A stretch of DNA of 40,917 nt from Candidatus Nomurabacteria bacterium (GTDB lineage Bacteria; Patescibacteriota; Minisyncoccia; Phycocordibacterales; SBAW01): the NCBI GenBank assembly GCA_943355135.1, contig CALREG010000001.1, positions 1 to 40,917 of the forward strand. The letters are read 5' to 3'. Under the pieces are notes generated by a model. It was not told the origin of the DNA and searched no databases. It saw only the letters and a list, made by a program, of their open reading frames with translations. Of the stretch, positions 11,980 to 40,197 are shown in pieces. Position 1 is the first letter of the stretch, and each line of letters opens with the position of its first letter. The position numbers and the translations under genes were made by a program.

Positions 11980-11981
11980 AT

Positions 11982-13790: not shown

Positions 13791-13794
13791 ATGG

Positions 13795-14894: not shown

Positions 14895-14901
14895 TGCTCT
14901 A

Positions 14902-14919: not shown

Positions 14920-14933
14920 ATCGTGTTGTTACT

Positions 14934-15194
14934 ATGTACTACGTTTATATTTTGCGTAGCCCCAAGCAGTTTTATACCGGTTCAACCAACGACTTAAAAA
15001 GACGCTTTTCCGAGCATCAAGAGGGTAAATCCTTTGCAACAAAAGGAAAAGGTCCTTGGCAGCTTGTCTATTATGAGGCTTGTACATCCGAAAAAGATGC
15101 TCGACTACGTGAAAAATATCTAAAAACTGCTTGGGGTAAAAGATATATTAAAGCTCGTTTAAAATATGACCTCGCTATCTCACGGGGTATATAG
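14934..15194 (+). CDS. Small GIY-YIG (URI-domain) nuclease family protein
   Basis: MYYVYILRS...FYTGSTNDLKRRFSEHQEGK...PWQLVYYE...REKYLK matches the stand-alone GIY-YIG family; 86 aa. It lies on the opposite strand inside the T4SS-like locus. Confidence 0.9.
   Translation: MYYVYILRSPKQFYTGSTNDLKRRFSEHQEGKSFATKGKGPWQLVYYEACTSEKDARLREKYLKTAWGKRYIKARLKYDLAISRGI
15176..15191 (+). repeat. Motif copy E (TATCTCACGGGGTATA), inverted partner of 14904-14919
   Basis: 15 of 16 positions are complementary to TATACCCCATGAGATA at 14904-14919. It overlaps the last codons of the GIY-YIG ORF. Confidence 0.7.
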
Positions 15195-15202
15195 CAACTT
15201 TT

Positions 15203-15733
15203 CTATGTAGTTGGCTCGCGATAGGGGTCTGCTTTGTATGGTTGCGGCGCGGTTGGCTCAACTTTAGGTGCTGCAGGTGGAATAAGTGGTTTTGGCGTAG
15301 GAGGAGCTACTGTAGTGACCGTTTTTTGCGAGAGCATCGCGTCGGCAGGGTGTAATTCGGCTGGTTTCGATATTGCCGAGGTGACTGGGGTGCTTGGACC
15401 AGAAGGAGCCCCTTGTCCGTCGGCCTTTTTCATTGAGCCACGGATCGGAACCATAATTTCCTTTCCAATATCTACCGCAATGTCACCCGCTGTTGTGGTG
15501 GATACACTGAGGTCATTAACCAGTTGAGACATAAATTCTTCAGGCTCGGTAAATCCCATCATAAACATGACCACCTCATCCTCGAGTTTGCCCATCTGGT
15601 CTATGTGGAGTTGGTGTTTGCTTCCAATAATCCGGATTTTTTCATGGAGCTGTGGCGACTTGAGGGCCGCTTGTAGTTCGGTCGGCAGCTTAGAAAACTG
15701 CTCCTGCATTAGTTTCTGAGATTCAATGTCCAT
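15203..15733 (-). CDS. Hypothetical soluble protein with a Pro-rich C-terminus (T4SS-locus protein)
   Basis: 176 aa ORF, 17 nt downstream of the VirB6-like gene. No recognisable motif. Confidence 0.7.
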   Translation of the reverse strand: MDIESQKLMQEQFSKLPTELQAALKSPQLHEKIRIIGSKHQLHIDQMGKLEDEVVMFMMGFTEPEEFMSQLVNDLSVSTTTAGDIAVDIGKEIMVPIRGSMKKADGQGAPSGPSTPVTSAISKPAELHPADAMLSQKTVTTVAPPTPKPLIPPAAPKVEPTAPQPYKADPYREPTT

Positions 15734-15750
15734 GTTATTCCGTTAGTCGA

Positions 15751-17895: not shown

Positions 17896-19768
17896 AGCAT
17901 TGGTTGAGCTCGGTAGTGGTCAGTTGATTGCGGGTTGCAAGCGAGTTTTGCAGGGTTGTACGGTCTTGCTGTGCGTTGGTGATATCGGTTTGGGTAATTA
18001 GCGTGCCCAACGCAAGTGCTTTGCTGTAGGCTGCCTTAACCGCCGCCACGTCTCCCGGTCCAGAAACGCCGATAGCCGCGGTTTGCAGATCTTGCAGGGT
18101 CGCGATACCTTGGTTGGCGCGTGTGATGTTGTTGTTGGCGTTGTCTATGAGTGGATCGTATGAGTGGAGCGCGCGCGCCGAGCTGGTTGCAAGCGCGTCT
18201 TGCAGTTTGCTCTCCCAGCAATTGACCAGAGTTTGTAGCTGTGACTGCGTGTTTTGTATATCGCCGATAATCCCCTGTTGTACCGAGCCATACTGCTGGG
18301 CCAAGTTGACCTGTCCTTGAAGTGCGGTCAACACTCCTTGCGCGTCTGCCTGTGCCTGCTGCTGTTCGGGTGTAAGAAAGTTTGCTGCGTAGCCTTGGCT
18401 TCCGCTGAGGTTAGACACACCTCCTTGGAGCGCCTTGACCATCAACTGACTTATGAGTGCGCTGATGATCGCGTCGAAACTACCCGAGATCCCCGCTTGG
18501 GTAAGCGTCTCTTTAGATACGTTCAGCGTACTACTCAAAGAGTCGGCGATGGTGGAGCCCGGAGTAGTCACTACTTTGTCGCAGATCATTTTAGTAGATA
18601 TGCCACCAGTGTTGGGAGCTGGTCGGCAGTTACTCTCCTTTTCAGACGAGAGGAAGCCTTTGCCCAATATGTAATCCTCTTGTTTTCGGCCTACAGCAGA
18701 GTTGACGGCGAAGCTGAGTTTACCGAGACCATCTTGGTAAGCTCCAAACGAGTTATTAGTGGGGGTGCCAACAAAGGAGAGGAGTCCGCCCCACCCACCT
18801 TGGGAGAAATTGCCATTAGCAAAAGCGTTTATGTTTTTAATGACGCCTGTAAGAGTACAAGAGGCGGCATTGTTGCGTCGTGCGTAGCTTTGTGCGAGAG
18901 CGACGCGTATCTGGGCTTTAAAGGGTGAGCACAAGAACGAGAGCGCTGAGCCGCGGATAAACTCACCCGCCGCTTGGTCGGCCACATTGGTAAAGAATTG
19001 CTTGTAGTTGGTAACAAACGACGGCTTGCCGTTGAAGCCGGAGTTGATCCAGTTGACCACACTCGAGGTGATTTGTTGCACGGCGGCGCGAGCAATAGTG
19101 CGAGCGATGCAGTTTAAAAAGTTTTCGCGTATGGTATCCGCCGTTGCCACCGTGTTGAGGTAGCGCGGCGACACAGGTACTGCACTTACTGTTTCGACGG
19201 CATTGCCGGCAAGTGATGCCGTTGCGCCGCCGAGCAACCCTGCAGTGCAGAGTGCCGCACCGACTCCTACCCCCAACAAAGCCGCTCCTAAAATACTATT
19301 GCCGTTGGCATCTACGGCAGTGGCTCCACTCCCGGGGACAATGTTGGGGCTCCCTGAGACAACGCCAGTATTAAGTTCGTTGGCTGTTTTTGGAACAAAG
19401 TTGCTGGTCGGTCCTCCTCCACTCCCCGCCGAACTACCGCCAAGCCAATCTACCCCAGGGACACTTTGTATACCGCCTGCTCCCCCGCCCGTGGTTCCTC
19501 CTCCTGCTGAAATACTGCTGCCGGTGGTGCCACCACCACTCAGTGGAGTCCCTACATTTATATTTGTGTCAGAAATAACGCCAGAGGGCGTGTTGTTTTG
19601 ATTTTTTGTGGTACTGGTGGTGCCGGTTGTTCTTGTCGTTCCTGTTCCAAACGAGCCGCTGTCAGGCTGTTTAATAATCCCGTCGCGGAAGAAGAAAAAC
19701 CAGACGAGCCCGACTAAAAGTGCAAGCGCTACTGCGGCGACAATAGTGAGTATAATTCGTCTGGTCAT
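17882..19768 (-). CDS. Hypothetical N-anchored protein with a Gly/Thr-rich low-complexity region and a large exposed domain
   Basis: 628 aa with a TM helix at residues 5-27, then a GTGTTRTTGTTSTT...GGGTTGSSISAGGGTTGGGAGG region. Overlaps both neighbours (4 and 14 nt). Confidence 0.7.
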   Translation of the reverse strand: MTRRIILTIVAAVALALLVGLVWFFFFRDGIIKQPDSGSFGTGTTRTTGTTSTTKNQNNTPSGVISDTNINVGTPLSGGGTTGSSISAGGGTTGGGAGGIQSVPGVDWLGGSSAGSGGGPTSNFVPKTANELNTGVVSGSPNIVPGSGATAVDANGNSILGAALLGVGVGAALCTAGLLGGATASLAGNAVETVSAVPVSPRYLNTVATADTIRENFLNCIARTIARAAVQQITSSVVNWINSGFNGKPSFVTNYKQFFTNVADQAAGEFIRGSALSFLCSPFKAQIRVALAQSYARRNNAASCTLTGVIKNINAFANGNFSQGGWGGLLSFVGTPTNNSFGAYQDGLGKLSFAVNSAVGRKQEDYILGKGFLSSEKESNCRPAPNTGGISTKMICDKVVTTPGSTIADSLSSTLNVSKETLTQAGISGSFDAIISALISQLMVKALQGGVSNLSGSQGYAANFLTPEQQQAQADAQGVLTALQGQVNLAQQYGSVQQGIIGDIQNTQSQLQTLVNCWESKLQDALATSSARALHSYDPLIDNANNNITRANQGIATLQDLQTAAIGVSGPGDVAAVKAAYSKALALGTLITQTDITNAQQDRTTLQNSLATRNQLTTTELNQCYAFQ

Positions 19769-20652
19769 TGAGGGTACGAAGAAACAAAAACGTCCCAGGA
19801 TGTCCCCGGCTCGTCTTTACTGAAAAGTATACCGCCTTTACGCAGTTGCTCGGCGAGCGTTGTTAACACACGTGCCGATTCTGTACCCGCGGTTTGGAAG
19901 CTTTGCAACCCCGAAAGTCCGCGCATCGGGTCTTCGAGGACCATACGCATCTCTCCGGTAGCCACCGACATTGTCGAAAGGTTATTAATGAGCGGCAGAT
20001 AGAGCGGAACGAGTGTTGTGGGGACAGGAATGTTGGCAAGATCCTCTGCCAACGCGGTATACTCTGCCCCTATACCCACAAGAGACTTGAGTGTGGCGGC
20101 GTCATTGTAGTCGGTAGCATACCCGATGGCATACAAAACATCGTCGTTGCTGGCTTTAGGGTGCTTTCTAAAGGTTTGCATAACCGCATTACCCCACGTG
20201 CGCATAGTGGCCGCGTTTTGAGATACTGCATTGAGGTCAGTCGCTTTATATTGAATACTCTCAATACTCCCTACCCGAGCGGCGGCGTCGGCTATAAGCT
20301 TTTCTTGGGTGGGTATATCGTTGCCAAGGCCCTGCGCGTTGGCATTGCTGAGGTTTATAAAGAGTGAGCGTGCTACGCTTGAGGTTACATTTGAGCTCTG
20401 AGCCTCTTTTAGTAATGCTTGTATGGTGTCTTCGCTCGGCGCGGCGGGGAGTTCGGGAGCTCCTGCTTGCGCTGCCTCTAGTGCAGCCTGCCAATCTTCG
20501 GCGGGAGTGGGCTGATCAGCACTTAATACGGCTGCGGGGCTGCTTTTAGGCGCAGTAATATATTGTGCCAGCAAGATAAGTGCGCCAGAGAGTGCAATAG
20601 ACACCACTATGGTTGAAAATCGTGAACTCGGGAGATACGAAGCAACATTCAT
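19765..20652 (-). CDS. Hypothetical N-anchored protein; first gene of the T4SS-like locus
   Basis: 295 aa with one TM helix (IVVSIALSGALILLAQYI). Motif copy B lies 7 nt upstream of the ATG. Confidence 0.7.
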   Translation of the reverse strand: MNVASYLPSSRFSTIVVSIALSGALILLAQYITAPKSSPAAVLSADQPTPAEDWQAALEAAQAGAPELPAAPSEDTIQALLKEAQSSNVTSSVARSLFINLSNANAQGLGNDIPTQEKLIADAAARVGSIESIQYKATDLNAVSQNAATMRTWGNAVMQTFRKHPKASNDDVLYAIGYATDYNDAATLKSLVGIGAEYTALAEDLANIPVPTTLVPLYLPLINNLSTMSVATGEMRMVLEDPMRGLSGLQSFQTAGTESARVLTTLAEQLRKGGILFSKDEPGTSWDVFVSSYPQ

Positions 20653-20659
20653 TACCTCA

Positions 20660-20677
20660 AGTATACCCCGTGAGATA
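20660..20677 (-). promoter_or_regulatory. Motif copy B: TATCTCACGGGGTATACT, 7 nt upstream of ATG 20652
   Basis: The rc of 20660-20677 reads TATCTCACGGGGTATACT, followed by TGAGGTA and then ATG. Confidence 0.6.
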
Positions 20678-20712
20678 GTCTGGGTAGTCGCGCGTCGTGA
20701 ATAATTATCATA

Positions 20713-25611: not shown

Positions 25612-27186
25612 TTACGACTTTTTCTCTCGATATTGCAACGCCTCTAAGATATGGCTTTCGTTGATGTCAGGGTGTTCGTCGAGGTCGGCGATGGTGCGCG
25701 CAACTTTGATGACACGGTGGAATGCTCGTGGAGAAAGCGCCATGCGTGTGCCCGCTTTTTCTAAGAGCTCGCGCACTTTAGTAGAAAGAGGAACCAAATC
25801 ATCGAGCTCGCGCGGCGAGAGGTCGCTGTTAGTTTTGTTTGGGTTTTTAGTTTTAGAAAATCGCTTTTTCTGCGCATCGCGCGCCTTGAGTACGCGGGTG
25901 CGCGCCGCTTTTGTTTGAGCGCCTTCGGTGTCGCGCTTGCCTAACTCGCCGAGCTCGACCGGCCCCATGATGCTCCAGAGGTCGATACGGTCGGCGATGG
26001 GCCCCGAAATTTTGCGTCGGTAGCGCTCCAAACTAATGGGGCTGCAGGTGCACGCAATTTCTGGGTGGCCGTAGTTGCCACACGGGCAGGGGTTCATGGC
26101 CGCCACCAGCGTAAAGCGCGCGGGGAATTGCGCGGTGCCTTTGGCGCGCGCCACAGAAATGATACGGTCTTCCAGCGGCTGGCGCAGTGCCTCAATGACT
26201 CGGCGTTCAAACTCGGGGAACTCGTCTAAAAACAAAACACCTCGGTGTGCGAGTGTTGCTTCGCCAGGGCGGGGTGTTGCTCCTCCACCGACGATAGAAA
26301 CGTAGGAGCTCGTGTGGTGTGGCGAGCGGAACGGCGGCATGGTCAAAAGTTCTCCGCGCAACACGCCTGCAACCGAGTGGATAGAATTTACTTCCAGCAC
26401 ATCATCAAACGACAGTGGTGGAAGTATCGAGGCGAGCGCGCGAGCGAGCATGGTTTTGCCCGTGCCGGGCGGGCCCGAAAGTCCTAGGTTGTGTCCGCCT
26501 GCGGCGGCAATAATTGCGGCGCGCTTGGCGCTCTCCTGTCCACGGATGTCTTCAAAAGCAAACTGTGACTCGCCAAAGTCGTGTTTGAGTTTTGTTGCGG
26601 GAGCGGGTTTGAGCTTGGCAGAGGTATTTCCTCCGGCTTTGCTGGAGGTGATTCCTCTGCCACCCTTTTTCGTATTCAAATGCTCAATAACCTGCAGTAA
26701 ATTATCCGCTCCATACACCTCTATCCCCTGCACGAGCGCCGCTTCGGCCACGTTGTCGGTTGGTACAAACACCGCCTTCTTCTTTTTGCGCTTTGCCTCA
26801 GCAATAAGCGGCAGTATCCCGCGCACCGGCTGCAATGCTCCATCGAGCGACAGCTCGCCCACAAACAAGTACGGCTCGGGGTCAAACTTGATATCCCCCG
26901 CTGCAAGTAAGTAGGAGAGTGCAATCGGCAAGTCGAACATCGGCCCTTCCTTTTTTAAATCTGCCGGGGCAAGCGAAATAACAATTTTTTGATTGCGCGA
27001 CTTCGGACTTTCAAAACCCGCGTGTTTAATCGCCGCGGCCACACGATCGCGCGACTCCTCGACCGCTTTGTCGGGCAACCCGACGACCGTAAAGGCGTGC
27101 AGCCCACGCGAGAGATCGGTCTCGATAGAAACAATATAAGGCGAAAGGAGCGATGTCTGAGCCCCGTACACCTTGGCGTACTGCAT
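25612..27186 (-). CDS. comM: YifB/ComM Mg-chelatase-like AAA+ ATPase
   Basis: N-terminal Lon-protease-like domain, Walker A GPPGTGKT, Walker B VLFLDE and a C-terminal ChlI-like region; 524 aa. Confidence 0.9.
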   Translation of the reverse strand: MQYAKVYGAQTSLLSPYIVSIETDLSRGLHAFTVVGLPDKAVEESRDRVAAAIKHAGFESPKSRNQKIVISLAPADLKKEGPMFDLPIALSYLLAAGDIKFDPEPYLFVGELSLDGALQPVRGILPLIAEAKRKKKKAVFVPTDNVAEAALVQGIEVYGADNLLQVIEHLNTKKGGRGITSSKAGGNTSAKLKPAPATKLKHDFGESQFAFEDIRGQESAKRAAIIAAAGGHNLGLSGPPGTGKTMLARALASILPPLSFDDVLEVNSIHSVAGVLRGELLTMPPFRSPHHTSSYVSIVGGGATPRPGEATLAHRGVLFLDEFPEFERRVIEALRQPLEDRIISVARAKGTAQFPARFTLVAAMNPCPCGNYGHPEIACTCSPISLERYRRKISGPIADRIDLWSIMGPVELGELGKRDTEGAQTKAARTRVLKARDAQKKRFSKTKNPNKTNSDLSPRELDDLVPLSTKVRELLEKAGTRMALSPRAFHRVIKVARTIADLDEHPDINESHILEALQYREKKS

Positions 27187-27199
27187 GCCCTACATACTA

Positions 27200-27763
27200 C
27201 TACGAAGTTTTCAGGACAGCAGGATCCCTCGTCTGTTCCTGGATAACCAGTTCGTAGATTCGCTGGCCAGAAACTGTGAGACCATTATCTTTTCTGTATT
27301 GTTTAAATTTAAGAATATTTTCTCGCTGCTCGGGTGTAATAGCTATGGTTGAAATATCGAGGTGACCAGCATTTAATATTCGTGCACGCTCGGCCGCACT
27401 GATAAACCAGATATCAAAATTCCAGCGCTCCTCTTGTATCAATGCTTTGAGCATAATAAGCCGTCCTACCGGCTTTGCGTTGCCCAGCTTAGGATCATCC
27501 CAATCGCTTTTTATGTAGTAACTCATAAAACGCGAAGTTGTCGCAAGGTGAATAGTTTTTGCTACTTCGAACATCTCTGCCATTTCAAACTCTTTTTCTC
27601 TTACCACTCCAATATCGACATCACCGTGTAGCATGACATTCCCAGCATACGCGCCTTCAATAAAGGTGCTGCCAAATTGTTCGAGACAACGAATGAGACC
27701 GGATTCATGCAGAAAGGCGTCAGCCTGATCGTGATAAGTTTGGGCCTTTTCGGTGAGTGTCAT
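27200..27763 (-). CDS. Hypothetical protein with a pol-beta-type nucleotidyltransferase signature
   Basis: GAYAGNVMLHGDVDIGV fits the G[SA]-x(9-10)-DxD NTase pattern; 187 aa. TATACT (rc of 27770-27775) lies 6 nt upstream of the ATG. Confidence 0.5.
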   Translation of the reverse strand: MTLTEKAQTYHDQADAFLHESGLIRCLEQFGSTFIEGAYAGNVMLHGDVDIGVVREKEFEMAEMFEVAKTIHLATTSRFMSYYIKSDWDDPKLGNAKPVGRLIMLKALIQEERWNFDIWFISAAERARILNAGHLDISTIAITPEQRENILKFKQYRKDNGLTVSGQRIYELVIQEQTRDPAVLKTS

Positions 27764-27795
27764 AAGGAAAGTATACCCGCTCTATTTGGTTGAAG

Positions 27796-27817
27796 AAAAC
27801 CCGCCAAAGCGGGTTTT
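27796..27817. terminator. Bidirectional rho-independent terminator
   Basis: AAAACCCGC-CAAA-GCGGGTTTT. It lies between repeat copy 1 and the promoter of the 27200-27763 gene. Confidence 0.7.
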
Positions 27818-27819
27818 CG

Positions 27820-27931
27820 TAGCGGAGCGAAAGAGGTTGGCGGGAGGCTTCGCAAGTGCGACGGCACGAGACTTGAGGAAATTTTTAGCAAAAAATTATC
27901 CGTACTCCCGCCGGCCTGCTTTCGCGGAGCC
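27820..27931. repeat. 112-nt structured repeat, copy 1 (candidate ncRNA or miniature palindromic element)
   Basis: 107 of 112 positions are identical to 33551-33662 in the same orientation. It folds into a 20-bp closing stem (27827-27846 with 27905-27925) plus two inner hairpins. It ends 1 nt from the stop codon of the convergent dksA-like gene. Confidence 0.75.
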
Positions 27932-27932
27932 T

Positions 27933-28247
27933 CTATGCCATGTGCAGCTTGCAAGTAGCAGCTGCAGGGTTTGCCTCAAGACGGTCTGCTTCTATCTTCT
28001 CGCCACACTCTTCGCAGAAGCCGTAGGTGCCGGCGTCCATGCGGGCAACAGCGGCTATAATTTCATTTTTACGCGCCAGAAGGGTCGCCTTTTCAGACGA
28101 GTGTTCCTCTTCGGCCTCCATGCGGTCGGCGAGCTCGTCGGATTCGGTGGCAGTCGGGTCTATGTCCTCTACCCCAAGGTCCGAGAGCTCCTGCTTGACC
28201 ACATCTATCTCCTCTTCTAGCTTTGCCCGCAGTTCTTCGTTTGTCAT
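27933..28247 (-). CDS. DksA/TraR-family C4 zinc-finger protein
   Basis: The C-terminus FCEECGEKIEADRLEANPAAATC is the Cx2C-x17-Cx... zinc-finger pattern. The start was moved to ATG 28247 (MTNEELRAKLEEE). TATACT (rc of 28256-28261) lies 8 nt upstream. Confidence 0.8.
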   Translation of the reverse strand: MTNEELRAKLEEEIDVVKQELSDLGVEDIDPTATESDELADRMEAEEEHSSEKATLLARKNEIIAAVARMDAGTYGFCEECGEKIEADRLEANPAAATCKLHMA

Positions 28248-28294
28248 ATGAAAAGAGTATACCCTACCGAAGTAAGCAAACAAAACTCGTCTCC

Positions 28295-29491
28295 TTATTG
28301 CCTCGGGATAGGCACCACAGGGGTGGTATTGAGCCTCGAGAGTACCTCGCGCAGGGTGTACTCATTGGTAGTAATAAGCACGGTGTTGCGCCCAAGGAAG
28401 GTCCACAACATCAGTATGTCGCCGTTGATGTTTTGTACGACTCGCGCGTCGCGGTTTTCTACCACCCTGTCCAAAAAGTTGCTTCTGATGAACTGTAGCG
28501 GAGATTCGTCAGGAAGCGTGGCACCAGTCTTCTGCGGGCTCGGTATTCGGGTAAACAGCGGTGAGAGGTCGCTCTGCAACGTGCGCTCCCACTCGAGCAT
28601 CCCTGCGTACGCGGTTTCGTACGAGTCCACCTGCAACAAGAGGAAGGGCTGATTTTCATCAAACGAGTGGAGGCCAAGTAGGTACTGGTTGCTCAGTACC
28701 CGCAGCAATTTTTCGGGCATCTCGGGCACCATGGTGCCCAACAATTCGGCACTGCCTATAGGGCGGTATTGGCCGTCTTTTGTGGCGGGGCTTTCTGCAA
28801 TGTAGAGCCACTGTATAAGCCCGAGCGATAGTTTTGCTTGGATACGCGCCGCCTGCAAAATTGTCATCAACTCTTCGCGGGTATGCGGGGAGGCAGGCAG
28901 TGCCACAAACTTACTGTCGTCTACTGCAATAAATGGTGCTTGGGGTGCCACTGCGGCGGGTACCGAGGTTGGGCGCGCGAGTACTACAGTCAGTACCACC
29001 CCCGCAAGCAACACCAGTACTACCCCGCCAGCTATCATGGCCCACCGCGTCGAGCGAGCCTTCTTTTCTTCGTACGTTTCTTCTGGCAGAGGTTGTTTGC
29101 CTCGGCGCACCGCTTCGGCGGCGGCGGCTGATACCGCAGACACACCCTGCTTGGCCACGACGCTATCCAAATCGGCCTTGTAGGTCTGTAGCGGCTTGGT
29201 CTCTGATTCTTCAACAGGTGCGGCTGGAGTTGTGGGAGCAGGAACTTGGGTCGTCGGTCCTATGACAACTGGAGCCGTAGGAGTGGCAGGCTTCAGTAGT
29301 GTCGCATTTTCTTCCTGAGCCAAAAGCGCGCCCGCGTTTACACGCTGCGCGCTTTCAGGCGTCGGTCCGCTCTCTTTTTTAGGGAGCAGTATTTTGCTAA
29401 TATCGAGACCCTTAACTTCGGGGTCCGGTTTCTTTTCGGGGGAAGGAGGCATGAGGTTCTGTCGAAGGCTTAAGGCCTTTGCGAGACGCAA
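28295..29491 (-). CDS. Hypothetical membrane protein with a Pro/Thr-rich N-terminal region
   Basis: 398 aa with a central TM helix (WAMIAGGVVLVLLAGVVLTVVLA). The start is uncertain: 29491 and 29452 both overlap the pnp 3' end. Confidence 0.6.
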   Translation of the reverse strand: MRLAKALSLRQNLMPPSPEKKPDPEVKGLDISKILLPKKESGPTPESAQRVNAGALLAQEENATLLKPATPTAPVVIGPTTQVPAPTTPAAPVEESETKPLQTYKADLDSVVAKQGVSAVSAAAAEAVRRGKQPLPEETYEEKKARSTRWAMIAGGVVLVLLAGVVLTVVLARPTSVPAAVAPQAPFIAVDDSKFVALPASPHTREELMTILQAARIQAKLSLGLIQWLYIAESPATKDGQYRPIGSAELLGTMVPEMPEKLLRVLSNQYLLGLHSFDENQPFLLLQVDSYETAYAGMLEWERTLQSDLSPLFTRIPSPQKTGATLPDESPLQFIRSNFLDRVVENRDARVVQNINGDILMLWTFLGRNTVLITTNEYTLREVLSRLNTTPVVPIPRQ

Positions 29492-31586
29492 ACTCCGGAT
29501 CTACCGCCTTAATAGAGAGGTTGATGCGGCCTTTATCGTCTATCTCCTTTATCATAACCCGAACCTTCTCCCCCACGCTCACCGCGTCGGCGATTTTGTT
29601 GATTCGGAAGGGCGCGATTTCGCTCACGTGCACCAACCCTTCGGCATCTTTGCCGGGGCCCACCTTTACAAACGCGCCGAAGTCCATCAAGCGAGTCACC
29701 TCGCCGTCGTATACCTCGCCCGCTTTGTACTCCTTCACTATTTGCTCGATCATTTCCTTGGCTTTCTGCGCAGTACCGCCCTTGCCGGTGATAAATATCG
29801 AGCCGTCGTCCTCTATCGTAATGTCAGAGACGCCGGTGACATCGCGGATACCGTTGATAGTCTTGCCTCCCCCGCCGATGACCATGCCAATTTGGTCGGG
29901 TTTGACCTTCATGGTCAAGATTTCTGGCGCGCGCGCCGATATGGCGGCACGCGGCGAAGCAATTTCTTTTTCAATCACATCGAGTATTTGTAAGCGCGCT
30001 TTCTTGCCACCTTCGAGTGCTTCCACCAGCACTGCAAGCGGAATACCGTCGAGTTTGATGTCGAGCTGTATTGCGGTGACGCCCGTGCGGGTGCCGGCAA
30101 CCTTAAAGTCCATGCCACCAAACTCGTCTTCGGGGCCTTGGATGTCGGTCATTACTTTGTGCTTGCCGTTGTGGGTCATGACGCCCATCGCGATGCCTGC
30201 AACCGGCGCCTTAATCGGCACACCGCCGTCCATGAGTGCAAGCGTAGAGGCGCAAGCCGAACCCATCGAGGTCGAGCCGTTGGATGCAAGACACTCCGAC
30301 ACCAAGCGGATCGTATACGGGAATTGCTCTGCCGACGGGATAACCGCGGCGAGCGCCTTTTCTGCAAGTGCGCCGTGGCCGGTCGCGCGGCGGTTGATGC
30401 CGCCCATGCGTCCTGTCTCCCCTGCCGAGTACGGGGGGAAGTTGTAGTGATGCATAAAGCGCTTCTTTACATCGTGCTCCTCCATCGTGTCTATTACCTG
30501 CGAGTCGCCGGGGCCACCGAGCGTAAGCGCAGTAAAGACGTGCGTGCCGCCGCGATAAAAGACGCCCGAGCCGTGCAGTATCGGCGAAATCCCGCCTGCT
30601 TTTGCAAACAGTGGGCGGATCTGGTCGAACGGCCGATTGTCCGCGCGCTTGTTGTCCTCGATTGCGCCGCGATGAATTTCTTCGTCCACTTTGTCTTCTA
30701 TAAATCGTTTTGCAACACCCTTGTTGATGTCTTTGAGCGCCTCTACTTCTTTAATCCGCGCCATCCACGCGTCGGTCAGGTGATGAATCTCATCTTTGCC
30801 TGCGACTCCGCAGAATACGGTCGGCGTAATTTTGCTGGCAAACTCGGTTGCATAGAGTTCGGTCAGTGCTGCAGGAAGTTCTGGCTTAGTTGCATCACGC
30901 TTTGGCTTGCCGATTTCGGCAATAATCTTTTTCTGCCAGGCCAAAATTTTGTTGTGCTCTTCTACCGAAAGTCCGAAGGCACTCGCAACTACCTCTTCGT
31001 GCGCCTCATTCGCGCCCACCTCAATCATGTTGATGGTGCCGTCTTTGCCACAAGCAAGCACATCGAACTCCGCACCTGCGCGCTCGGCGTAGGTCGGGTT
31101 GATGATAGGTTGGCCGCCTTTTTGTCCGATGCGCACCGCAGCCACTGGCCCGCCCCACGGGATGTCCGAGGTCGCGAGTGCGAGCGATGCGGCGTTGACC
31201 GCTACTTGGTCGGGGTCTTCCTCATCAAGAGCGAGTACGGTAATGACTACCTGCACTTCGTTGCGGATGTGCTGAGGGAAGAGCGGACGGATAGTGCGGT
31301 CGACGATGCGACCGCTGAGGATTGCGGCGTCAGATGGCCGGCCCTCGCGGCGCATAAAGCGCGAGCCGAGGATTGCACCTGCGGCGTAGAAGCGCTCCTC
31401 GTAGTCGACGGTTAGAGGAAAGTAATCGATGTCGTCGCGCGTGCGACCAGATATAACCGCAGTGGCGAGCACCGCGGTGTTGCCGTAACGCAAAATGACC
31501 GAGCCGTTGGCCTGCTCGGCAAGGTCGGTAAACTCGGCCACCATTGTTTTGCCCCCCACCTCGAGCGAGTACGTTTTTGATTGCAT
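29412..31586 (-). CDS. pnp: Polyribonucleotide nucleotidyltransferase (PNPase)
   Basis: 724 aa with two RNase PH domains, a KH domain (MVIGGGGKTINGI) and a C-terminal S1 domain (GEVYDGEVTRLMDFGAFVKV). Confidence 0.96.
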   Translation of the reverse strand: MQSKTYSLEVGGKTMVAEFTDLAEQANGSVILRYGNTAVLATAVISGRTRDDIDYFPLTVDYEERFYAAGAILGSRFMRREGRPSDAAILSGRIVDRTIRPLFPQHIRNEVQVVITVLALDEEDPDQVAVNAASLALATSDIPWGGPVAAVRIGQKGGQPIINPTYAERAGAEFDVLACGKDGTINMIEVGANEAHEEVVASAFGLSVEEHNKILAWQKKIIAEIGKPKRDATKPELPAALTELYATEFASKITPTVFCGVAGKDEIHHLTDAWMARIKEVEALKDINKGVAKRFIEDKVDEEIHRGAIEDNKRADNRPFDQIRPLFAKAGGISPILHGSGVFYRGGTHVFTALTLGGPGDSQVIDTMEEHDVKKRFMHHYNFPPYSAGETGRMGGINRRATGHGALAEKALAAVIPSAEQFPYTIRLVSECLASNGSTSMGSACASTLALMDGGVPIKAPVAGIAMGVMTHNGKHKVMTDIQGPEDEFGGMDFKVAGTRTGVTAIQLDIKLDGIPLAVLVEALEGGKKARLQILDVIEKEIASPRAAISARAPEILTMKVKPDQIGMVIGGGGKTINGIRDVTGVSDITIEDDGSIFITGKGGTAQKAKEMIEQIVKEYKAGEVYDGEVTRLMDFGAFVKVGPGKDAEGLVHVSEIAPFRINKIADAVSVGEKVRVMIKEIDDKGRINLSIKAVDPEFASRKGLKPSTEPHASFPRKETGPRS

Positions 31587-31687
31587 ACCTTATATATGCA
31601 AAGTTCGCGAATTTTAGGTCTCAAGCACTATCTTGAGAGCTACCTATCCGCGCCCTTTGCGCTTAATTAATATACCGAAACTGTAGC

Positions 31688-31725
31688 AAAAAAAAGACCC
31701 TCGCGCGAGGCGAAGGTCTGGAAAC
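31688..31725 (-). terminator. Rho-independent terminator of the 45-aa ORF
   Basis: The minus strand reads AGACCttcgCCTCgcgcGAGGGTCT followed by T8. Confidence 0.6.
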
Positions 31726-31736
31726 GGGGCTTGATG

Positions 31737-31874
31737 TCAGCGGGTGCTGACGTCGGTGGCGGCCTGCGAGTGTTGGACCGTCTGCTGGCTGTTGCGGTAG
31801 GCGTCGTATCCGACCAAAACTGCCAAAACGATGCAAACCGGAAGAATCTGCCGAAGAACATAGCGCTTGCTCAT
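31737..31874 (-). CDS. Hypothetical 45-aa single-TM protein
   Basis: Below the track cutoff. Translation is MSKRYVLRQILPVCIVLAVLVGYDAYRNSQQTVQHSQAATDVSTR. It has an SD-like AGAGGG 8 nt upstream, a TTGCCA-N16-TATACT promoter further upstream and its own terminator. Confidence 0.5.
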   Translation of the reverse strand: MSKRYVLRQILPVCIVLAVLVGYDAYRNSQQTVQHSQAATDVSTR

Positions 31875-31942
31875 GGGTGGACCCTCTGTGCTGGACTAAA
31901 AACAGTATACCACAAAGGCCTTTTTTGGCAAAAGGGTAGTAC

Positions 31943-31971
31943 TTGACAAAACTAGTGAAAAGGAGTATAAT
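31943..31971 (+). promoter_or_regulatory. Perfect consensus sigma70 promoter TTGACA-N17-TATAAT
   Basis: TTGACA at 31943-31948, a 17-nt spacer and TATAAT at 31966-31971. It lies about 40 nt upstream of ATG 32011, which has GAGGAGG as its SD. Confidence 0.7.
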
Positions 31972-32010
31972 ACACAATGGAGCAACGAACCTTGAGGAGG
32001 GCATTAGAGA

Positions 32011-32544
32011 ATGTTCAGAATTAAGTTTCTGCTCTGGGCTTACCGCCAAGTCTTGGCGGTTACGGTCCTCTCTTGCTACGGAGCTGCCGTGCTAGCACTC
32101 TTGTTTTTGCTGGCATACGCGCCGGGGGCGGTCTTGTACCTCCTCGACGTGGTCTCGCCGATCACCGAAGCCATCAAGAGTGCGCTGTGGGGTCTATTCC
32201 CTGGCGACGCTCCGAAGTGGATTAAGGCGGCCGGCGGATGGCTGGGGGCGGCGACTCGGTGGACACTGTCGTTCACCAAGGCGCGCGAGGAGGCGATCGG
32301 GCGGATTCTTCTGCTCGATGGCTTTGTTCTCGTAAGTCTTATGGCTTGGGTATTCGTCAGGATATCTGGGCTGTGGGTCAACGTACTGGTGGCGCGGTGG
32401 TTCAACCGCCGCTACTGCCTAGTACGGCGGCAAAGCGTCGAGTCGCTTATGCCGCAAGAGCGGGATAACCCGCCGACATCCGCTCCTGCAGAGCAGCCGA
32501 AGAAGCTGCCACAAGCACCGCAACTTCAAAAGCCCCCTCACTAG
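32011..32544 (+). CDS. Hypothetical membrane protein (GC-rich islet I)
   Basis: 177 aa with about 3 TM helices and a Pro/Gln-rich tail. It has a strong SD, and its stop codon lies in the loop of its own terminator. Confidence 0.65.
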   Translation: MFRIKFLLWAYRQVLAVTVLSCYGAAVLALLFLLAYAPGAVLYLLDVVSPITEAIKSALWGLFPGDAPKWIKAAGGWLGAATRWTLSFTKAREEAIGRILLLDGFVLVSLMAWVFVRISGLWVNVLVARWFNRRYCLVRRQSVESLMPQERDNPPTSAPAEQPKKLPQAPQLQKPPH

Positions 32545-32560
32545 GGGGCTTTCTCTTTTT
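32528..32560 (+). terminator. Rho-independent terminator overlapping the stop codon
   Basis: AGCCCCCT (32531-32538), loop CACT, AGGGGGCT (32543-32550), then a T-rich run. TAG at 32542-32544 spans the loop/stem junction. Confidence 0.75.
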
Positions 32561-32611
32561 CCTATAAACCCCGACGCACAAAGTGGTCGGGGTCCCGACC
32601 AAGGTGTCGGG

Positions 32612-32641
32612 ATAAAAAAGCCCCGCTCATGCAGCGGGGCT
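32612..32641 (-). terminator. Rho-independent terminator overlapping the stop codon
   Basis: AGCCCCGC (32619-32626) and GCGGGGCT (32634-32641), with an A6 run on the plus strand giving a U-run on the minus strand. The TGA (rc of 32627-32629) lies in the loop. Confidence 0.75.
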
Positions 32642-33007
32642 TGGGTCGAGCGTCACATGGTCGCGCTGTTGTCGGCGCTTGGCGATACCGATCGCTTGGT
32701 CGAGCGACTCGATCGTCCGGTCCGATTCGCGGTACATCTTGCGCTTGGTGCACCAGTATCCCTGCAAGTAAGCGACCTTCTGTTGCACGCTTGCTTGGGT
32801 GAGCTTCAACACCAAGTTTAATTTGCCCCAAGGAGAGACTCCGTGGCGCGCATCGTGCGCTCCAGAGTCCCAATAGTGCGCCGTGTGCCCGATTGGCCAC
32901 GGGGCGTTGCTCTTGCAGTCTGGGTCGTGCTCGTATTTGTTGACCCAACTTGCACCACAGCAAGGGCACACGCCCTGCTGACAAAGTTTCGTCACTGGGT
33001 CTTTCAT
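32627..33007 (-). CDS. Hypothetical Cys-rich protein (GC-rich islet I)
   Basis: 126 aa from ATG 33007 (the track start at 33010 is GTG). CQQGVCPCCG...C near the N-terminus. SD AAGGGGAG upstream. Confidence 0.55.
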   Translation of the reverse strand: MKDPVTKLCQQGVCPCCGASWVNKYEHDPDCKSNAPWPIGHTAHYWDSGAHDARHGVSPWGKLNLVLKLTQASVQQKVAYLQGYWCTKRKMYRESDRTIESLDQAIGIAKRRQQRDHVTLDPSPAA

Positions 33008-33054
33008 CACTCTCCCCTTCGGTTATCTTCTGCCCAGAGAGTAACAAATAAGTC

Positions 33055-33099
33055 AAAAAATAAAAAGCCCCGCAGTTGTCGACTGACGACTGCGGGGCT
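33055..33099 (-). terminator. Rho-independent terminator
   Basis: AGCCCCGCAGT (33066-33076) and ACTGCGGGGCT (33089-33099), with an A-rich run on the plus strand giving a U-run on the minus strand. It lies 5 nt after the stop of 33104-33442. Confidence 0.8.
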
Positions 33100-33103
33100 G
33101 GCA

Positions 33104-33442
33104 TTACTTCTGACGCTGGACCTCGCTTGGGTGCGAAGGAATGATGTCCTGAGCCTTCGGCCGCGAACGCGGCACTGGCACGATCGTGCGGACATCTCGC
33201 TCGAGCTTCGAGTTGAGCTGTTCGATCTTGGTGAGGAGTTCCTCCATGCGCGTCATACCTTGGCGCAGAGTCTCCATCGCCTTGTCCATCTCCTTCAGGT
33301 CGGTGCAGGCCTCCTGGAGATTGGTGTCGGCACGATCTTCGGCGGTCGGGTTGGTGCAGAAAGTCGGCAGTTCCGCCGCGTAGGCAGGAGTGGCCAACAT
33401 AGCTGTGGCACAAAGCGCCGCAACAAAGAAGAGCCTCTTCAT
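33104..33442 (-). CDS. Small secreted coiled-coil protein (GC-rich islet I)
   Basis: Signal peptide MKRLFFVAALCATAMLATPAYA followed by heptad-like MDKAMETLRQGMTRMEELLTKIEQLNSKLE. SD AAGGTG lies 6 nt upstream. Confidence 0.65.
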   Translation of the reverse strand: MKRLFFVAALCATAMLATPAYAAELPTFCTNPTAEDRADTNLQEACTDLKEMDKAMETLRQGMTRMEELLTKIEQLNSKLERDVRTIVPVPRSRPKAQDIIPSHPSEVQRQK

Positions 33443-33550
33443 AGGTCACCTTTGGTTAGGGTTGAGAACGGGTACCAAACGGAATATAGCAAGAAAGCCC
33501 TATCTCCGCCAGAAGGCTAAGAGATCAGGGCTTTACATGTGTATTAAATC

Positions 33551-33662
33551 TAGTGGAGCGAAAGAGGTTGGCAGGAGGCTTCGCAAGTGCGACGGCACGA
33601 GACTTGAGGAAATTTTTAGCAAAAAATTATCCGTACTCCTGCCGACCTGCTTTCGCGGAACC
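33551..33662. repeat. 112-nt structured repeat, copy 2
   Basis: Aligns to 27820-27931 at an offset of 5731 with 5 substitutions. It ends 1 nt from the stop codon of the convergent NYN gene. A hairpin at 33497-33536 follows it in the minus direction. Confidence 0.75.
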
Positions 33663-33663
33663 C

Positions 33664-34335
33664 TTACTCGCCCGACATCTTGATAGCGGGGTCCTCCCCT
33701 TCGCCATTCCAGTCTTGCTGCGCCTCGGTTGTTTCGATACTGGTGTCGGCATCGATGCGGCCTTCTTTGCCACCACCATTGCCCGACTTGCCCCCAAAGC
33801 CGGGGATATAGCGCCCGACGCCGCCGCGAAAGCCGATGAGGAAGTTGCGTGGGTCTTCGCACATATCGATAAACTCGTCGGCCGCGTCGCGCAGCTGGCC
33901 AGAAGATGATTTGCCGAAGGCGATGACCTCGACTTGGCAGCCGTGTGCGTACTTGAGGTACTCTACGACCGGCACAAAGTCGCCGTCGCCGGTGGCGATG
34001 ATGATAGTGTCGAGCTTTTGCGCCATAGCCACCAAGTCGATGACGGTGCCGAGGTCCCAGTCGGCCTTCTTGGCGCCGCCCGCAAAGACGCGGATGTCTT
34101 TGACCTTAGTTTCGATACCAAGCTTGTTGAGTGCGTCGAAGAAGCCCTTCTCCTCCTCGCTCTCGGTGCGGATAACGTAGGCGATGGCGCGGATAAGTTG
34201 GCGCCCCGCTACGGCCTCTTTGACCACTTGGCCAAAGTTGACCTTGGCCTTGTAGAGGTTTTTTGCGCTGTGATAAAGGTTTTGCGTGTCTATAAAAATG
34301 CCGACACGCTGGCTTTTGTGTTTGATGATTGCCAT
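33664..34335 (-). CDS. NYN/LabA-like (PIN-fold) domain protein with a Gly-rich tail
   Basis: VGIFIDTQNLYHSAK...IIATGDGDFVPVV is the NYN-domain acidic pattern. The C-terminus is RGG/Gly-rich (FRGGVGRYIPGFGGKSGNGGGKEGR). Confidence 0.8.
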   Translation of the reverse strand: MAIIKHKSQRVGIFIDTQNLYHSAKNLYKAKVNFGQVVKEAVAGRQLIRAIAYVIRTESEEEKGFFDALNKLGIETKVKDIRVFAGGAKKADWDLGTVIDLVAMAQKLDTIIIATGDGDFVPVVEYLKYAHGCQVEVIAFGKSSSGQLRDAADEFIDMCEDPRNFLIGFRGGVGRYIPGFGGKSGNGGGKEGRIDADTSIETTEAQQDWNGEGEDPAIKMSGE

Positions 34336-34486
34336 ATAACAAAAATAAATTAAACGAACTGCTATTAAAAATAGAACACTGCGTATGTGCTGACGATGAA
34401 CCTACAAAACAAAAAAGGCCTTTCTATATAGTACTACCGTTTGGCAATACAAAATCTTTCACTTGCACCAAAAAAGTGCAAAACTC

Positions 34487-34753
34487 TTACTTCTTCAAAT
34501 TGAGCTTCTTGACCAGAGCGTTGTAACGCTTCTTGTCCTTGCCCTCGAGGTACTTCAAATGGGTGCGGCGGTCGGCTACCATCTGCAAAAGGCCGCGGCG
34601 GCTGTGCTTGTCCTTCAGGTGTTTCTTCAAATGCGAGGCAAGCTCGTCTATTTGCTTAGACAAAAGTGCGACCTGGACCTCCGGAGAGCCAGTGTCGGTG
34701 GCATGAACAGCCACTTCCTTCATAGTTTTAGTCTTTTTCTGCTTCGTCAGCAT
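34487..34753 (-). CDS. rpsO: 30S ribosomal protein S15
   Basis: [16 protein letters not shown]...[20 protein letters not shown] is typical S15. ATG 34753 is preferred because TGtGATACT (rc of 34762-34770) lies 8 nt upstream; the track start is 34759. Confidence 0.93.
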
Positions 34754-36148: not shown

Positions 36149-36254
36149 GACCCACCTCTATATATAGAACTTGTCCGGATGCGCCGGAACCCGCTAAACA
36201 CAAAGTACCACTACCTACTTTGCGTGTCTATCGTGGTAAAATATTGTGCGACGT

Positions 36255-37169
36255 ATGGCAACTACTGAACTCTCAAAACTCAAAACCGAATTTCTAGAAT
36301 ATCTAGAGATAGAAAAGGGCCGCTCGGTTAAGACGGTGGAGAATTATGACCGCTACCTCACGCGCTACCTCGCTTTTTCTAAAGTCTCCTCCCCTGCCAA
36401 GCTTACTGAACAGTCGGTACGCGAGTTTCGCATACATCTAAACCGACAGGCGGGTACGAGTGGCACGATGAAGCACAAGACGCAGAACTACTACATGATT
36501 TCTCTGCGGGCGTTTCTCAAATTTCTGCGCAAGCGCGGGATAGAAAGTTTAAACCCCGAAAGAATTGAACTCGCCAAGGTTGGTCAGCGCGATTTGGATT
36601 TGATTACTGCCGACGAACTCAATCGGCTCATCAATGGGCCAAAAAATGACCCTTCGGTTGCAGGCTTGCGCGATAGGGCAATTTTGGAATTATTTTTCTC
36701 CACCGGCTTGCGCGTCTCGGAACTCTGCGCGCTCAATCGCGACATCGACCTCTCGCGTGATGAGTTCAGTGTGCGTGGCAAAGGCGAGAAGGTGCGCGTG
36801 GTCTTCCTCTCCCCTGCCGCCAAGGCCGCTATCAAAGCCTATGAGGCGAAGCGTGGCGATGTAGACGAAGCGCTGTTTATACAAATGGGCCGCGCCTCAA
36901 AAAACGCGAATGACCTCCGGTTGACCCCTCGTTCTATAGAAAGAATCGTCAAAGGTTATGCGATTAAGGCCGGCATCACCCGCAAAGTTACGCCGCACGT
37001 TATCCGCCACAGCTTTGCCACCGATTTGCTAGAGAACGGTGCCGATCTCCGCTCGGTGCAAGCATTGCTCGGCCATGCCAACATCGCCACGACACAGGTC
37101 TATACCCACATAACCGACAAACATCTGCGCGAGGTGCATAAAAAATTTCATGGACAACGGAGAAAATAA
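36255..37169 (+). CDS. XerC/XerD-type tyrosine recombinase
   Basis: N-terminal SAM-like core-binding domain (FLEYLEIEKGRSVKTVENY). Catalytic R...HVIRHSFAT...LLGHANIATTQVYTH. The start was moved to ATG 36255; TGgTAAAAT at 36234-36242. Confidence 0.88.
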   Translation: MATTELSKLKTEFLEYLEIEKGRSVKTVENYDRYLTRYLAFSKVSSPAKLTEQSVREFRIHLNRQAGTSGTMKHKTQNYYMISLRAFLKFLRKRGIESLNPERIELAKVGQRDLDLITADELNRLINGPKNDPSVAGLRDRAILELFFSTGLRVSELCALNRDIDLSRDEFSVRGKGEKVRVVFLSPAAKAAIKAYEAKRGDVDEALFIQMGRASKNANDLRLTPRSIERIVKGYAIKAGITRKVTPHVIRHSFATDLLENGADLRSVQALLGHANIATTQVYTHITDKHLREVHKKFHGQRRK

Positions 37170-39916: not shown

Positions 39917-39990
39917 TGGTGCGGATAGGGAGAATCGAACTCCCGTCTCAACCTTGGCAAGGTCGTGTTCTACCACTAAACCATATCCGC
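39917..39990 (-). tRNA. tRNA-Gly (anticodon GCC), CCA encoded
   Basis: The rc reads GCGGATA-TG-GTTT-AGTGGTA-GAAC-A-CGACC-TTGCCAA-GGTTG-AGAC-GGGAG-TTCGATT-CTCCC-TATCCGC-A-CCA. This gives a full cloverleaf of 74 nt. Confidence 0.9.
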
Positions 39991-40125: not shown

Positions 40126-40197
40126 GCGTCTGTGGTGAAATGGATATCATCGCTGCCTTCGAAGCAGTTGTTGGGGGTTCGAGTTCCTCCAGACGCA
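40126..40197 (+). tRNA. tRNA-Arg (anticodon UCG), no encoded CCA
   Basis: Reads GCGTCTG-TG-GTGA-AATGGATA-TCAT-C-GCTGC-CTTCGAA-GCAGT-TGTT-GGGGG-TTCGAGT-TCCTC-CAGACGC-A. The T-stem contains two G-T pairs, hence the reduced confidence. Confidence 0.7.

Follow-up and report, generated by a model that had tools for sequence, protein, structure and literature searches.

The locus described here raises a simple question: what is a 112-nt sequence that occurs twice in one bacterial contig, is predicted to fold into a long branched stem and each time lies directly behind the stop codon of a gene? The contig (CALREG010000001.1 of assembly GCA_943355135.1, Candidatus Nomurabacteria bacterium) was analysed over positions 1 to 40,917 of its forward strand, and this whole stretch of 40,917 nucleotides is called the window below. 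An ungapped alignment of 27820-27931 (copy 1) with 33551-33662 (copy 2) gave 107/112 identical positions in the same orientation, exactly as reported in an earlier note on this DNA. No other long repeat occurs in the window, where the direct-repeat family next in length measures 35 nt at 74% identity, and a covariance-model scan of both strands with filters off returned exactly these two copies, at 137.9 bits for copy 1 (model R1) and 135.0 bits for copy 2. They are members of a real, dispersed, structured and previously uncatalogued family of elements of about 110 nt in Adlerbacteria-like Patescibacteria.

Measured from outermost pair to outermost pair, copy 1 spans 27822-27930 and copy 2, a short form, 33553-33661, both on the plus strand and both belonging to a subtype that we call type a. 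RNAalifold resolves the fold into an outer 2-bp clamp, a symmetric GGA/GGA internal loop, a closing rod (P1), a hairpin (P2), a junction (J2/3) and a second hairpin (P3). Clamp, loop and the start of P1 make up a base module, GC-GGA-GC, whose 5´ half (27822-27828) faces 27924-27930, with the GGA of 27824-27826 opposite 27926-27928. P1 pairs 27827-27846 with 27905-27925; counted from the internal loop, it has 7 bp, the single bulged G27918 and then 13 bp. The apex is a three-way junction with the 7-bp hairpin P2 (27847-27865, GCUUCGC-AAGU-GCGA(C)GGC, with the octamer GCGACGGC inside it), the unpaired 11-nt J2/3 (27866-27876, ACGAGACTTGA) and the AU-rich P3 (27877-27901), which carries an AGCA tetraloop and a bulged A. 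Closing stem, bulge and AU-rich hairpin agree with the fold proposed earlier, and the hairpin then placed at 27850-27861 is part of the larger P2. The plus strand of copy 1 folds at -52.6 kcal/mol (z = -5.1, 0/200 shuffles equally good) and the minus strand at -43.3 kcal/mol (z = -4.3).

The five differences between the window copies are all structure-neutral, amounting to two compensatory pairs and one U.G to U-A change. Three of them lie in the closing stem at the positions given in the earlier note, namely G27842A with C27909T, and G27914A; to this we add that the remaining two, C27823T and G27929A, are also paired with each other and together convert an outer C-G pair to U-A. The similarity of the copies extends into the TA of the stop codons (27934-5 and 33665-6).

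Exact-core scans of species-representative genomes and metagenomes yielded 15 loci, and 14 distinct copies from independent assemblies once same-genome contigs were included; sampled loci are cited by L numbers below. The hosts are Adlerbacteria-like Patescibacteria from groundwater and soil. For the window itself, the NYN protein falls into the same 90% cluster as Candidatus Adlerbacteria proteins, and the block rpsO-NYN-pnp-dksA-comM-nth-LysM-uvrD-ksgA is syntenic with an Adlerbacteria genome. The element appears to be low-copy in the sampled DNA: there are two copies in the 51 kb of the window's contig and 1-2 exact-core matches per species-representative genome. Walking the contig and sampling eight related genomes added a single intact copy (type c in L029), and about 190 kb of related genomes contained zero copies.

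Pair counts over the 14 copies show 98% of alignment cells to be paired. Double changes occur in 16/39 pairs, against 3.0 +/- 1.3 in shuffles (0/500 reach 16) and only 3-6 when the structure is slid. They are located in P1 (compensatory in 9/20 pairs) and in P3 (5/10 pairs), whereas P2 is invariant and hence provides no covariation evidence. The stem for which compensatory change had been claimed from two copies is therefore not broken at random in the additional ones; the covariation is real.

Four forms of the element were found in total, namely types a, b and c and a sense-oriented form at L007/L014. The last keeps a 34-nt core exactly, on a P1 that is wholly different, AU-rich and perfectly paired. 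J2/3 is identical in all 14 type-a and L007-type copies, and an apical core of 27 nt is invariant. The diverged types b (L018:3409-3521, 60.6 bits) and c (L029:14280-14393, 54.9 and then 74.2 bits) were identified by covariance model. Both keep the GC-GGA-GC module (C-GGA-G / C-GGA-G in types a, b and c alike), the single bulge in the same place seven pairs higher, a long covarying rod, the octamer and a UAGCAA hairpin with its bulged A, and the rest of their sequence is unrelated. P3 is present in all four forms.

The placement of the element is as characteristic as its fold. In the window, copy 1 abuts the stop codon (CTA, 27933-27935) of a DksA/TraR-type zinc-finger gene (27933-28283, minus strand) and copy 2 that (TTA, 33664-33666) of an NYN-domain gene (33664-34335, minus strand). 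Both stop codons lie 1 nt past the repeat, as noted earlier, and 2 nt past the outermost base pair. The neighbours on the other side, a 187-aa open reading frame (ORF) at copy 1 and a small ORF at copy 2, are encoded on the minus strand too, so that each copy sits between tandem genes and not between a convergent pair. Further copies show the same abutment at unrelated host genes. Seven such genes were found altogether (dksA-like, NYN, ndk, rpsR and the genes for a KH-domain protein, an MliC-domain protein and a LysM/M23 peptidase); at all seven the stop codon (TAA or TAG) is 1-2 nt from the outermost pair and the best-folding strand is antisense to the abutting gene. This orientation rule holds in 7/8 host-gene contexts, the exception being L007/L014, where the element follows a VirB4-like gene at a distance of about 20 nt in sense orientation.

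Seen in the sense of the host gene, the order at both window copies, L017, L018 (types a and b) and L029 is stop codon, element, intrinsic terminator, and at L008 and L009 it is stop codon, element, ribosome-binding site (RBS) of the next cistron. At L029 the terminator behind the element is predicted to function in the gene sense only. Because gene-sense terminators lie beyond it, the element should be co-transcribed as the window's minus strand. Of the two terminator-like hairpins pointed out earlier, the first stands at 27796-27817 and the second is better placed at 33494-33534 than at 33497-33536. The latter (minus strand) is the native terminator of the NYN gene and occurs also at the element-free NYN loci of L028, L031 and L032. 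The former (AAAACCCGCCAAAGCGGGTTTT, a predicted intrinsic terminator in the gene sense) is linked to a long form of the element: among 39 sampled loci and the window, the 22-nt hairpin AAAACCCGCCwwrGCGGGTTTT was seen solely beside the element, in four locus/genome combinations and at two host genes (dksA-like and NYN). Its confinement to the element's side suggests that the long form brings its own terminator. The linker between rod and hairpin varies (TA, CA, AC or TC across the four long-form copies, TA in copy 1), and the hairpin, AAAACCCGCC..GGCGGGTTTT, travels together with the element.

Comparison of relatives reveals behaviour typical of dispersed repeats. The NYN site of the window reads TAA, the element, G ATTTAATAC..AAAGCCC and then the terminator; the empty site of L028 and L031 reads TAA, 6-7 nt, ATTTA..AAAGCCC and the same terminator. 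The dksA locus is without the element in L028, L029, L031 and L036, and the C-termini of DksA and NYN are identical between filled and empty states. The VirB4-like locus, in turn, is filled in L007 and empty in the window ortholog. L032 has only stop-proximal type-c stumps, after both the NYN and the dksA stops, one of which equals L029 type c at 29/29 nt. The dksA locus may accordingly hold type a (window), type b (L018) or a type-c stump (L032). A P3 variant of four substitutions is common to the non-orthologous loci L018 NYN and L020 KH, which indicates that copies are mosaic. On the basis of these subfamilies, empty sites, remnants and mosaics, "palindromic mini-element", one half of the title chosen in the earlier note, is at least as apt as the other half, "structured RNA". 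Neither a target-site duplication nor conserved termini were found among the aligned loci; TA stands on both sides of the two window copies only, the 5´ flank elsewhere being GG, GA, TG and so on.

Short-read assemblies break or turn chimeric at the element. One flank of L012 equals L008 and the other L016, the two being joined at the element, either by recombination or as an assembly chimera. Logan contig L002 begins and ends within element copies, and L004 ends within one. Import of cargo genes was considered as well, as extra genes adjoin filled sites, and was rejected for the 187-aa gene (27186-27763), which is ancestral. The dksA-comM spacer of about 40 nt in L028 (10315-10358) and L029 (10315-10356) consists of the first ~10 and last ~16 nt of this gene; these remnants show that it was deleted in the L028/L029 lineages and not brought by the element. 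Its loss is an example of genome reduction that leaves recognisable stumps. In L028 the divergent LysM-uvrD spacer contains a weak match to the element (14599-14647, minus strand, 15 bits, E = 0.16), which reads GGGAGCUAAAU...UUUAGCGGAA around a short hairpin and may be either a miniaturised type-c base module or a chance match.

Once resident, the copies are under strong constraint, judging from orthologous loci. Orthologous pairs at NYN, ndk and the KH protein are 90-98% identical within the element and 76-82% identical in the adjacent coding 3´ ends (89% for the KH pair); third positions of conserved four-fold-family codons in the adjacent genes are 55-66% identical. By this measure the element's rate of change is about as low as that of first and second codon positions in these conserved proteins. 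Neutral decay after insertion would look different.

Collections of known sequences did not provide a name for it. Rfam 15 at gathering score, applied to the whole window, returned only three tRNA genes (39920-39990, minus strand, 72 bits; 40126-40197, plus strand, 55 bits; 40819-40889, plus strand, 62 bits), leaving the element unmatched in either orientation. With E-values up to 10 around copy 1, only chance matches driven by the terminator emerged (<=21 bits), and L007, L018 and L029, which cover types a, b and c and the L007 form, never gave a match at the element. These empty scans on four subtypes rule out a known RNA family, ribozyme classes included, and bear out the description of the element as an unclassified structured one; hammerhead and other ribozyme cores, inspected by eye, did not match either. 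Searches with blastn against 72,556 plasmids, a phage collection and 5,426 E. coli genomes found nothing. Pattern scans of IMG/VR gave 0, 0 and 6 matches, the six being a chance 17-mer in a phage coding region, and a viral relative was rejected. In literature searches we encountered no element of such kind described from the Candidate Phyla Radiation (CPR).

Several more specific identities were also discarded. A variable/template repeat (VR/TR) pair of a diversity-generating retroelement (DGR) is contradicted by five differences at G/A and C/T on both strands, by the non-coding nature of the copies and by the many loci. Type a has a mini-ORF (GGAGG 8 nt ahead of GUG-CGA-CGG-CAC-GAG-ACU-UGA), the start and frame of which have no equivalent in types b and c. 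A signal for stop-codon readthrough or recoding does not fit the 1-2 nt spacing, the variable frame and the wrong strand.

The kind of element is nevertheless familiar, that of an intergenic palindromic repeat of ERIC/REPIN/attC type, whereas the stop-codon abutment, the conserved branched apex and the fold on the antisense strand match none of these families. ERIC (or IRU) sequences, 127 bp long in Enterobacteriaceae, are alike in being imperfect palindromes of ~110-130 bp with one long stem-loop and low to moderate copy number, located in transcribed intergenic regions by stop codons, conserved across species and sensitive to orientation. A nearby terminating ribosome has been proposed to remodel ERIC RNA, and orientation-dependent effects on mRNA were described for ERIC in Yersinia (PMC2229807). 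The present element, however, has no sequence similarity to them (in 5,426 E. coli genomes) and no TA duplication; its stems covary between subfamilies instead of forming sequence-conserved terminal repeats, its apex is a conserved three-way junction and its fold is selected antisense to mRNA.

The REP/REPIN-RAYT system shares with it non-coding palindromes at gene 3´ ends, a long hairpin composed of two inverted halves and persistence at orthologous positions. REPs and REPINs are thought to be processed as folded single-stranded DNA (ssDNA) by an enzyme encoded in trans. Here, in contrast, there is no conserved GTAG or CGTC tag, the flanks lack a conserved tetranucleotide, the copy number in the sampled DNA appears to be far below the usual 100 or more, the interior is conserved and branched instead of being a short spacer, and strict stop abutment is no REP feature. 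A RAYT, that is, a PF01797-type protein, is absent from the window and the sampled loci.

The integron attC sites come close in architecture. They too directly follow the stop of an ORF, their folding strand is the complement of the coding strand (here in 7/8 contexts), structure is conserved and not sequence, near-identical copies occur within a genome, as in the case of VCRs, and they combine an unpaired spacer near the base with a short helix, an extrahelical base in the 3´ arm and an apex that is variable or branched. In types a, b and c, the 3x3 loop and the one bulge of the 3´ arm correspond to the attC strand and spacer features as an architectural analogy only. A classical attC site was rejected, since the RYYYAAC / GTTRRRY core sites are missing; in fold sense the ends read GCGGAGCG... 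and ...CGCGGAGC, and the only GTT of the element, GGTTGGCG, lies within the 5´ arm. Unlike attC sites, the copies do not form a cassette array and stand 5.7 kb apart behind housekeeping genes without an IntI, the base helix outside the loop is just 2 bp long and the apical core is conserved in sequence. The sole tyrosine recombinase (36246-37169) is XerC/D-like and is found in the same gene context in genomes that lack the element.

Correia/NEMIS, RUP and other miniature inverted-repeat transposable elements (MITEs) resemble it as non-coding units of ~100-150 bp that give a long stem-loop transcript, have filled and empty sites and may act as terminators. Filled and empty sites between relatives are indeed observed here (NYN, dksA and VirB4-like loci). 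On the other hand, there are no sequence-conserved terminal inverted repeats matching an insertion sequence, the complementary arms covary freely and are unrelated in sequence in L007, L018 type b and L029 type c, the element is GC-rich and not A+T-rich, and resident copies are under strong purifying selection. Scans with Pfam or NCBIfam found no transposase gene among the window ORFs, and the flanks of the aligned loci rule out a TA-duplicating MITE. Finally, the ssoA-type single-strand origins of rolling-circle plasmids are likewise orientation-specific folded ssDNA of about 110-160 nt. The CS-6 consensus of their terminal loop is TAGCGA/T (PMC6395029; PMC5703833), which the loop TAGCAA matches at 5/6 positions and nothing more; the RSB box (TTTATGCCGAGAAAA) is missing, and the element is chromosomal, multi-locus and adjacent to stop codons, with no match in 72,556 plasmids.

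Which strand carries the selected fold is the point on which explanations divide. In the 14-sequence alignment, the non-Watson-Crick cells comprise 35 G.U versus 1 A.C when read on the plus strand, and the reverse when read on the mRNA strand. Wobble positions switch among U.G, U-A and C-G in several lineages. The plus-sense fold of all four forms is better by 5-13 kcal/mol with RNA parameters and by 3-6 kcal/mol with DNA parameters, and each form has 1-4 G.U pairs in plus sense against 0-1 in minus sense. The conserved internal loop is made up of purines (GGA/GGA) in the plus strand, its counterpart in the mRNA strand being UCC/UCC. We infer fairly firmly that the selected fold is that of the strand complementary to the host mRNA. 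The G.U argument of the earlier note for the plus strand is in this respect strongly reinforced; its extension to an independent plus-strand RNA gene is hard to sustain, because no promoter is seen and a terminator stands 2 nt upstream at several loci. By eye, no conserved -35/-10 or promoter-like sequence is present upstream in the plus sense in the aligned flanks; a promoter scan of 27000-34500 (7.5 kb) found no more sites than in shuffles, with no site ahead of either copy. At four loci (copy 1, L017 and L018 types a and b) the plus sense is preceded, at a distance of 2 nt, by a hairpin with a U-run.

We tentatively suggest, with somewhat less than even confidence, that this is a dispersed element of ERIC/REPIN/attC-like kind and that selection acts on it as a folded single strand, probably of DNA. 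As the plus strand has no visible promoter and often follows a terminator, its folded form would most likely be ssDNA. By analogy with attC bottom strands or REP/REPIN hairpins, the fold might be read by a trans-acting structure-specific protein of recombinase or nuclease type; this mechanism is only weakly inferred. The niche between stop codon and terminator could then be a place of tolerance or of targeting, and the RNA hairpin in the minus-sense 3´ untranslated region (UTR) would be incidental, though it might influence mRNA stability in the manner of ERIC. We rank the ssDNA reading first, for it is compatible with the strand that folds, the lack of a promoter, the conservation of structure over sequence between subfamilies and the gain, loss and truncation of copies. 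A more specific version is possible, if doubtful: the element might be the cis site of an undescribed system of CPR bacteria that acts on folded single strands, of extruded or replicating DNA or of cDNA. Its protein would recognise the GC-GGA-GC base module, the bulge and the AGCA hairpin, and the element would be installed or maintained right behind stops. Such a site would have attC/REP-like architecture, but other core sites, stop-codon targeting and presumably another enzyme.

A number of observations weigh against an ssDNA site. It does not explain the rule of orientation relative to the host gene, the transcript-defined boundaries or the strength of conservation. The last is at the level of non-synonymous sites, unlike that of a purely selfish repeat, and points to a host-level function. 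No candidate enzyme was found, the window and sampled loci having only the housekeeping-type XerC/D-like recombinase and the DGR reverse transcriptase of L009, and the aligned loci show neither target-site duplication nor sequence-conserved termini. In its 27-nt invariant core and three-way junction, the element is closer in appearance to a functional RNA than to the DNA hairpin sites that are known. Moreover, the unit extends exactly between the stop codon and the point where the terminator U-tract ends, both landmarks of a transcript, which hints at an RNA-level entity. Orientation also tracks the host gene and not replication. An oriC-type region in the window would put both copies on the lagging-strand template; the L029 copy, however, is inverted relative to the same syntenic block, so that simple exposure of the lagging-strand template cannot account for the strand. 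Given this inversion and a weak GC skew, we rejected replication direction as the factor that sets orientation.

These landmarks would be accommodated by a cis-acting RNA module of the 3´ UTR in the mRNA sense, the window's minus strand, which is an unlikely explanation all the same. In such a module, the rod would begin 1-2 nt past the stop, so that a terminating ribosome must melt its base, and the rod, alone or together with the terminator, would shield mRNA from 3´-5´ exonucleases or expose or hide a processing site. The element does lie within transcription units, from the stop to a gene-sense terminator or to the next RBS; its boundaries coincide with transcript landmarks, the terminator hairpin co-travels, orientation follows the rule in 7/8 contexts and the minus strand folds well by itself. 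The ribosome- and orientation-dependent effects of ERIC on mRNA supply a precedent (PMC2229807). The fold argues to the contrary, since selection for a protective hairpin should purge A.C and tolerate G.U, and the opposite is found: the mRNA sense has A.C in 35 cells versus 1 G.U, a UCC/UCC loop and 5-13 kcal/mol less stability. Additionally, the L007/L014 element has the opposite orientation with respect to the genes beside it, the host genes are unrelated in function and relatives do without the element at the same loci. The minus-strand 3´-UTR alternative of the earlier note is thus consistent with the transcription units and at odds with the strand of the selected fold.

The strand would be explained by a new structured non-coding RNA (ncRNA) in plus sense, be it a small RNA, a ribozyme or a protein-binding RNA, encoded by multiple paralogous genes convergent with the host gene and having the conserved junction and loops as its functional core. 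A new class of plus-sense ncRNA with an unrecognised type of promoter would be equally novel. Covariation and G.U pairs favour the plus sense, the 27-nt invariant core includes the unpaired junction, conservation exceeds that of neighbouring coding DNA, and subfamilies alike in structure and unlike in sequence are reminiscent of families of paralogous RNAs. A pseudoknot might form between the P2 loop (C)AAGU and the complementary ACUU(G) of J2/3; the L007/L014 plus sense is co-directional with the flanking genes, and a short U-rich tail (CUUUUA, CCUUA) follows the rod. We still regard an RNA gene of this type as rather improbable. Besides the missing promoters, the hairpin and U-run 2 nt upstream of copy 1, L017 and L018 types a and b would halt incoming transcription, and the terminator neighbouring the L029 copy is predicted to work only in gene sense. 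Copies are patchily distributed, some sites being empty and others holding truncated remnants, no Rfam family or ribozyme is matched and the mini-ORF of the type-a core is lost in types b and c.

Very unlikely, lastly, is a retro-mobile 3´-UTR cassette, a stop-to-terminator unit copied from mRNA to plus-sense cDNA, on the fold of which selection acts, and reinserted behind other stops: it would fit the transcript-defined boundaries, the fold selected on the complementary strand and the obligate antisense orientation expected of a promoter-less unit that rides the host transcript, and reverse transcriptases do occur in these genomes, but the only one seen (L009) belongs to an ordinary DGR with its own TR/VR and cannot be tied to the element, there is no poly-A, other retroposition scar or target-site duplication, stop-codon targeting has no known mechanism and L007/L014 is sense-oriented.

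Other features of the window and the sampled loci are recorded here for their own sake. An oriC-type arrangement occupies 4085-8527, with dnaN (4085-5188) and dnaA (5385-6725) on the minus strand and rnpA (6979-7305), yidC (7287-8003) and jag/R3H (about 8057-8527) on the plus strand. Matches to the DnaA box lie at 5222, 5376, 5864 and 6805, a count not above chance, and cumulative GC skew is lowest at about 4-6 kb. Should the origin lie here, the genes in about 27 kb to the right of it (8.5-35.5 kb, including pnp and rpsO) would be transcribed head-on to replication. A type IV secretion-like cluster follows on the minus strand (8529-20652), with a pilin of this system (9758-10345), a VirB4/TraG-type ATPase (11982-13790), a 219-aa protein similar to the TrsD/VirB4 N-terminus (13795-14454), a PrgI family protein (14454-14894) and several large ORFs without a family match (15751-20652). 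The motif GGGTATACT (plus strand: AAGTATACCC) occurs at 27764-27790, 14892-14922 and 20650-20680, each time with a start codon 6-7 nt on; it resembles a -10 box directly upstream of leaderless genes, and two of its instances constitute the repeat family D6. A perfect sigma-70 consensus, TTGACA-17-TATAAT, is present on the plus strand at 31943-31971, upstream of a 177-aa ORF (32011-32544). This ORF has its own terminator (32529-32552) and is the lone plus-strand gene in the minus-strand block between the element copies.

In L009 the DGR covers 3009-5554 and consists of a 120-nt VR (3586-3705) at the 3´ end of a 234-aa gene, a TR (4028-4147, 86% identical) and a group-II-like reverse transcriptase (4325-5554). 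The element copy at rpsR is 1.3 kb away, and no link was seen between the two. Between ssb and a 170-aa ORF, the same locus harbors a 118-nt palindrome of 25% GC (6081-6199) built from repeated (C)AAGTA(T/A)C motifs; its MIR444 match in Rfam is spurious, and it is a distinct structured or iterated element. The L018 organism encodes a syntenic XerC/D-like recombinase of 714 aa (L042 6132-8276, equal to L043 1917-4061), which has an intein with a LAGLIDADG endonuclease domain within its Phage_integrase domain.

To our knowledge, almost no non-coding biology has been described for CPR bacteria, or Patescibacteria, the genomes of which are tiny. In such organisms we now find a non-coding element of 110 nt that is as conserved as non-synonymous sites of housekeeping genes, covaries, abuts stop codons and is folded on the "wrong" strand. 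It accounts for recurrent breaks and chimeras in metagenome assemblies of these organisms. If its folded form is DNA, there would be a structure-specific recombination or nuclease system in them that is so far unknown, and the position just past a stop codon would be seen to be located, by a cell or by an element, in a new way. A folded form of RNA would instead represent a new RNA class absent from Rfam. Either way, a covariance model is now ready for the annotation of such genomes.

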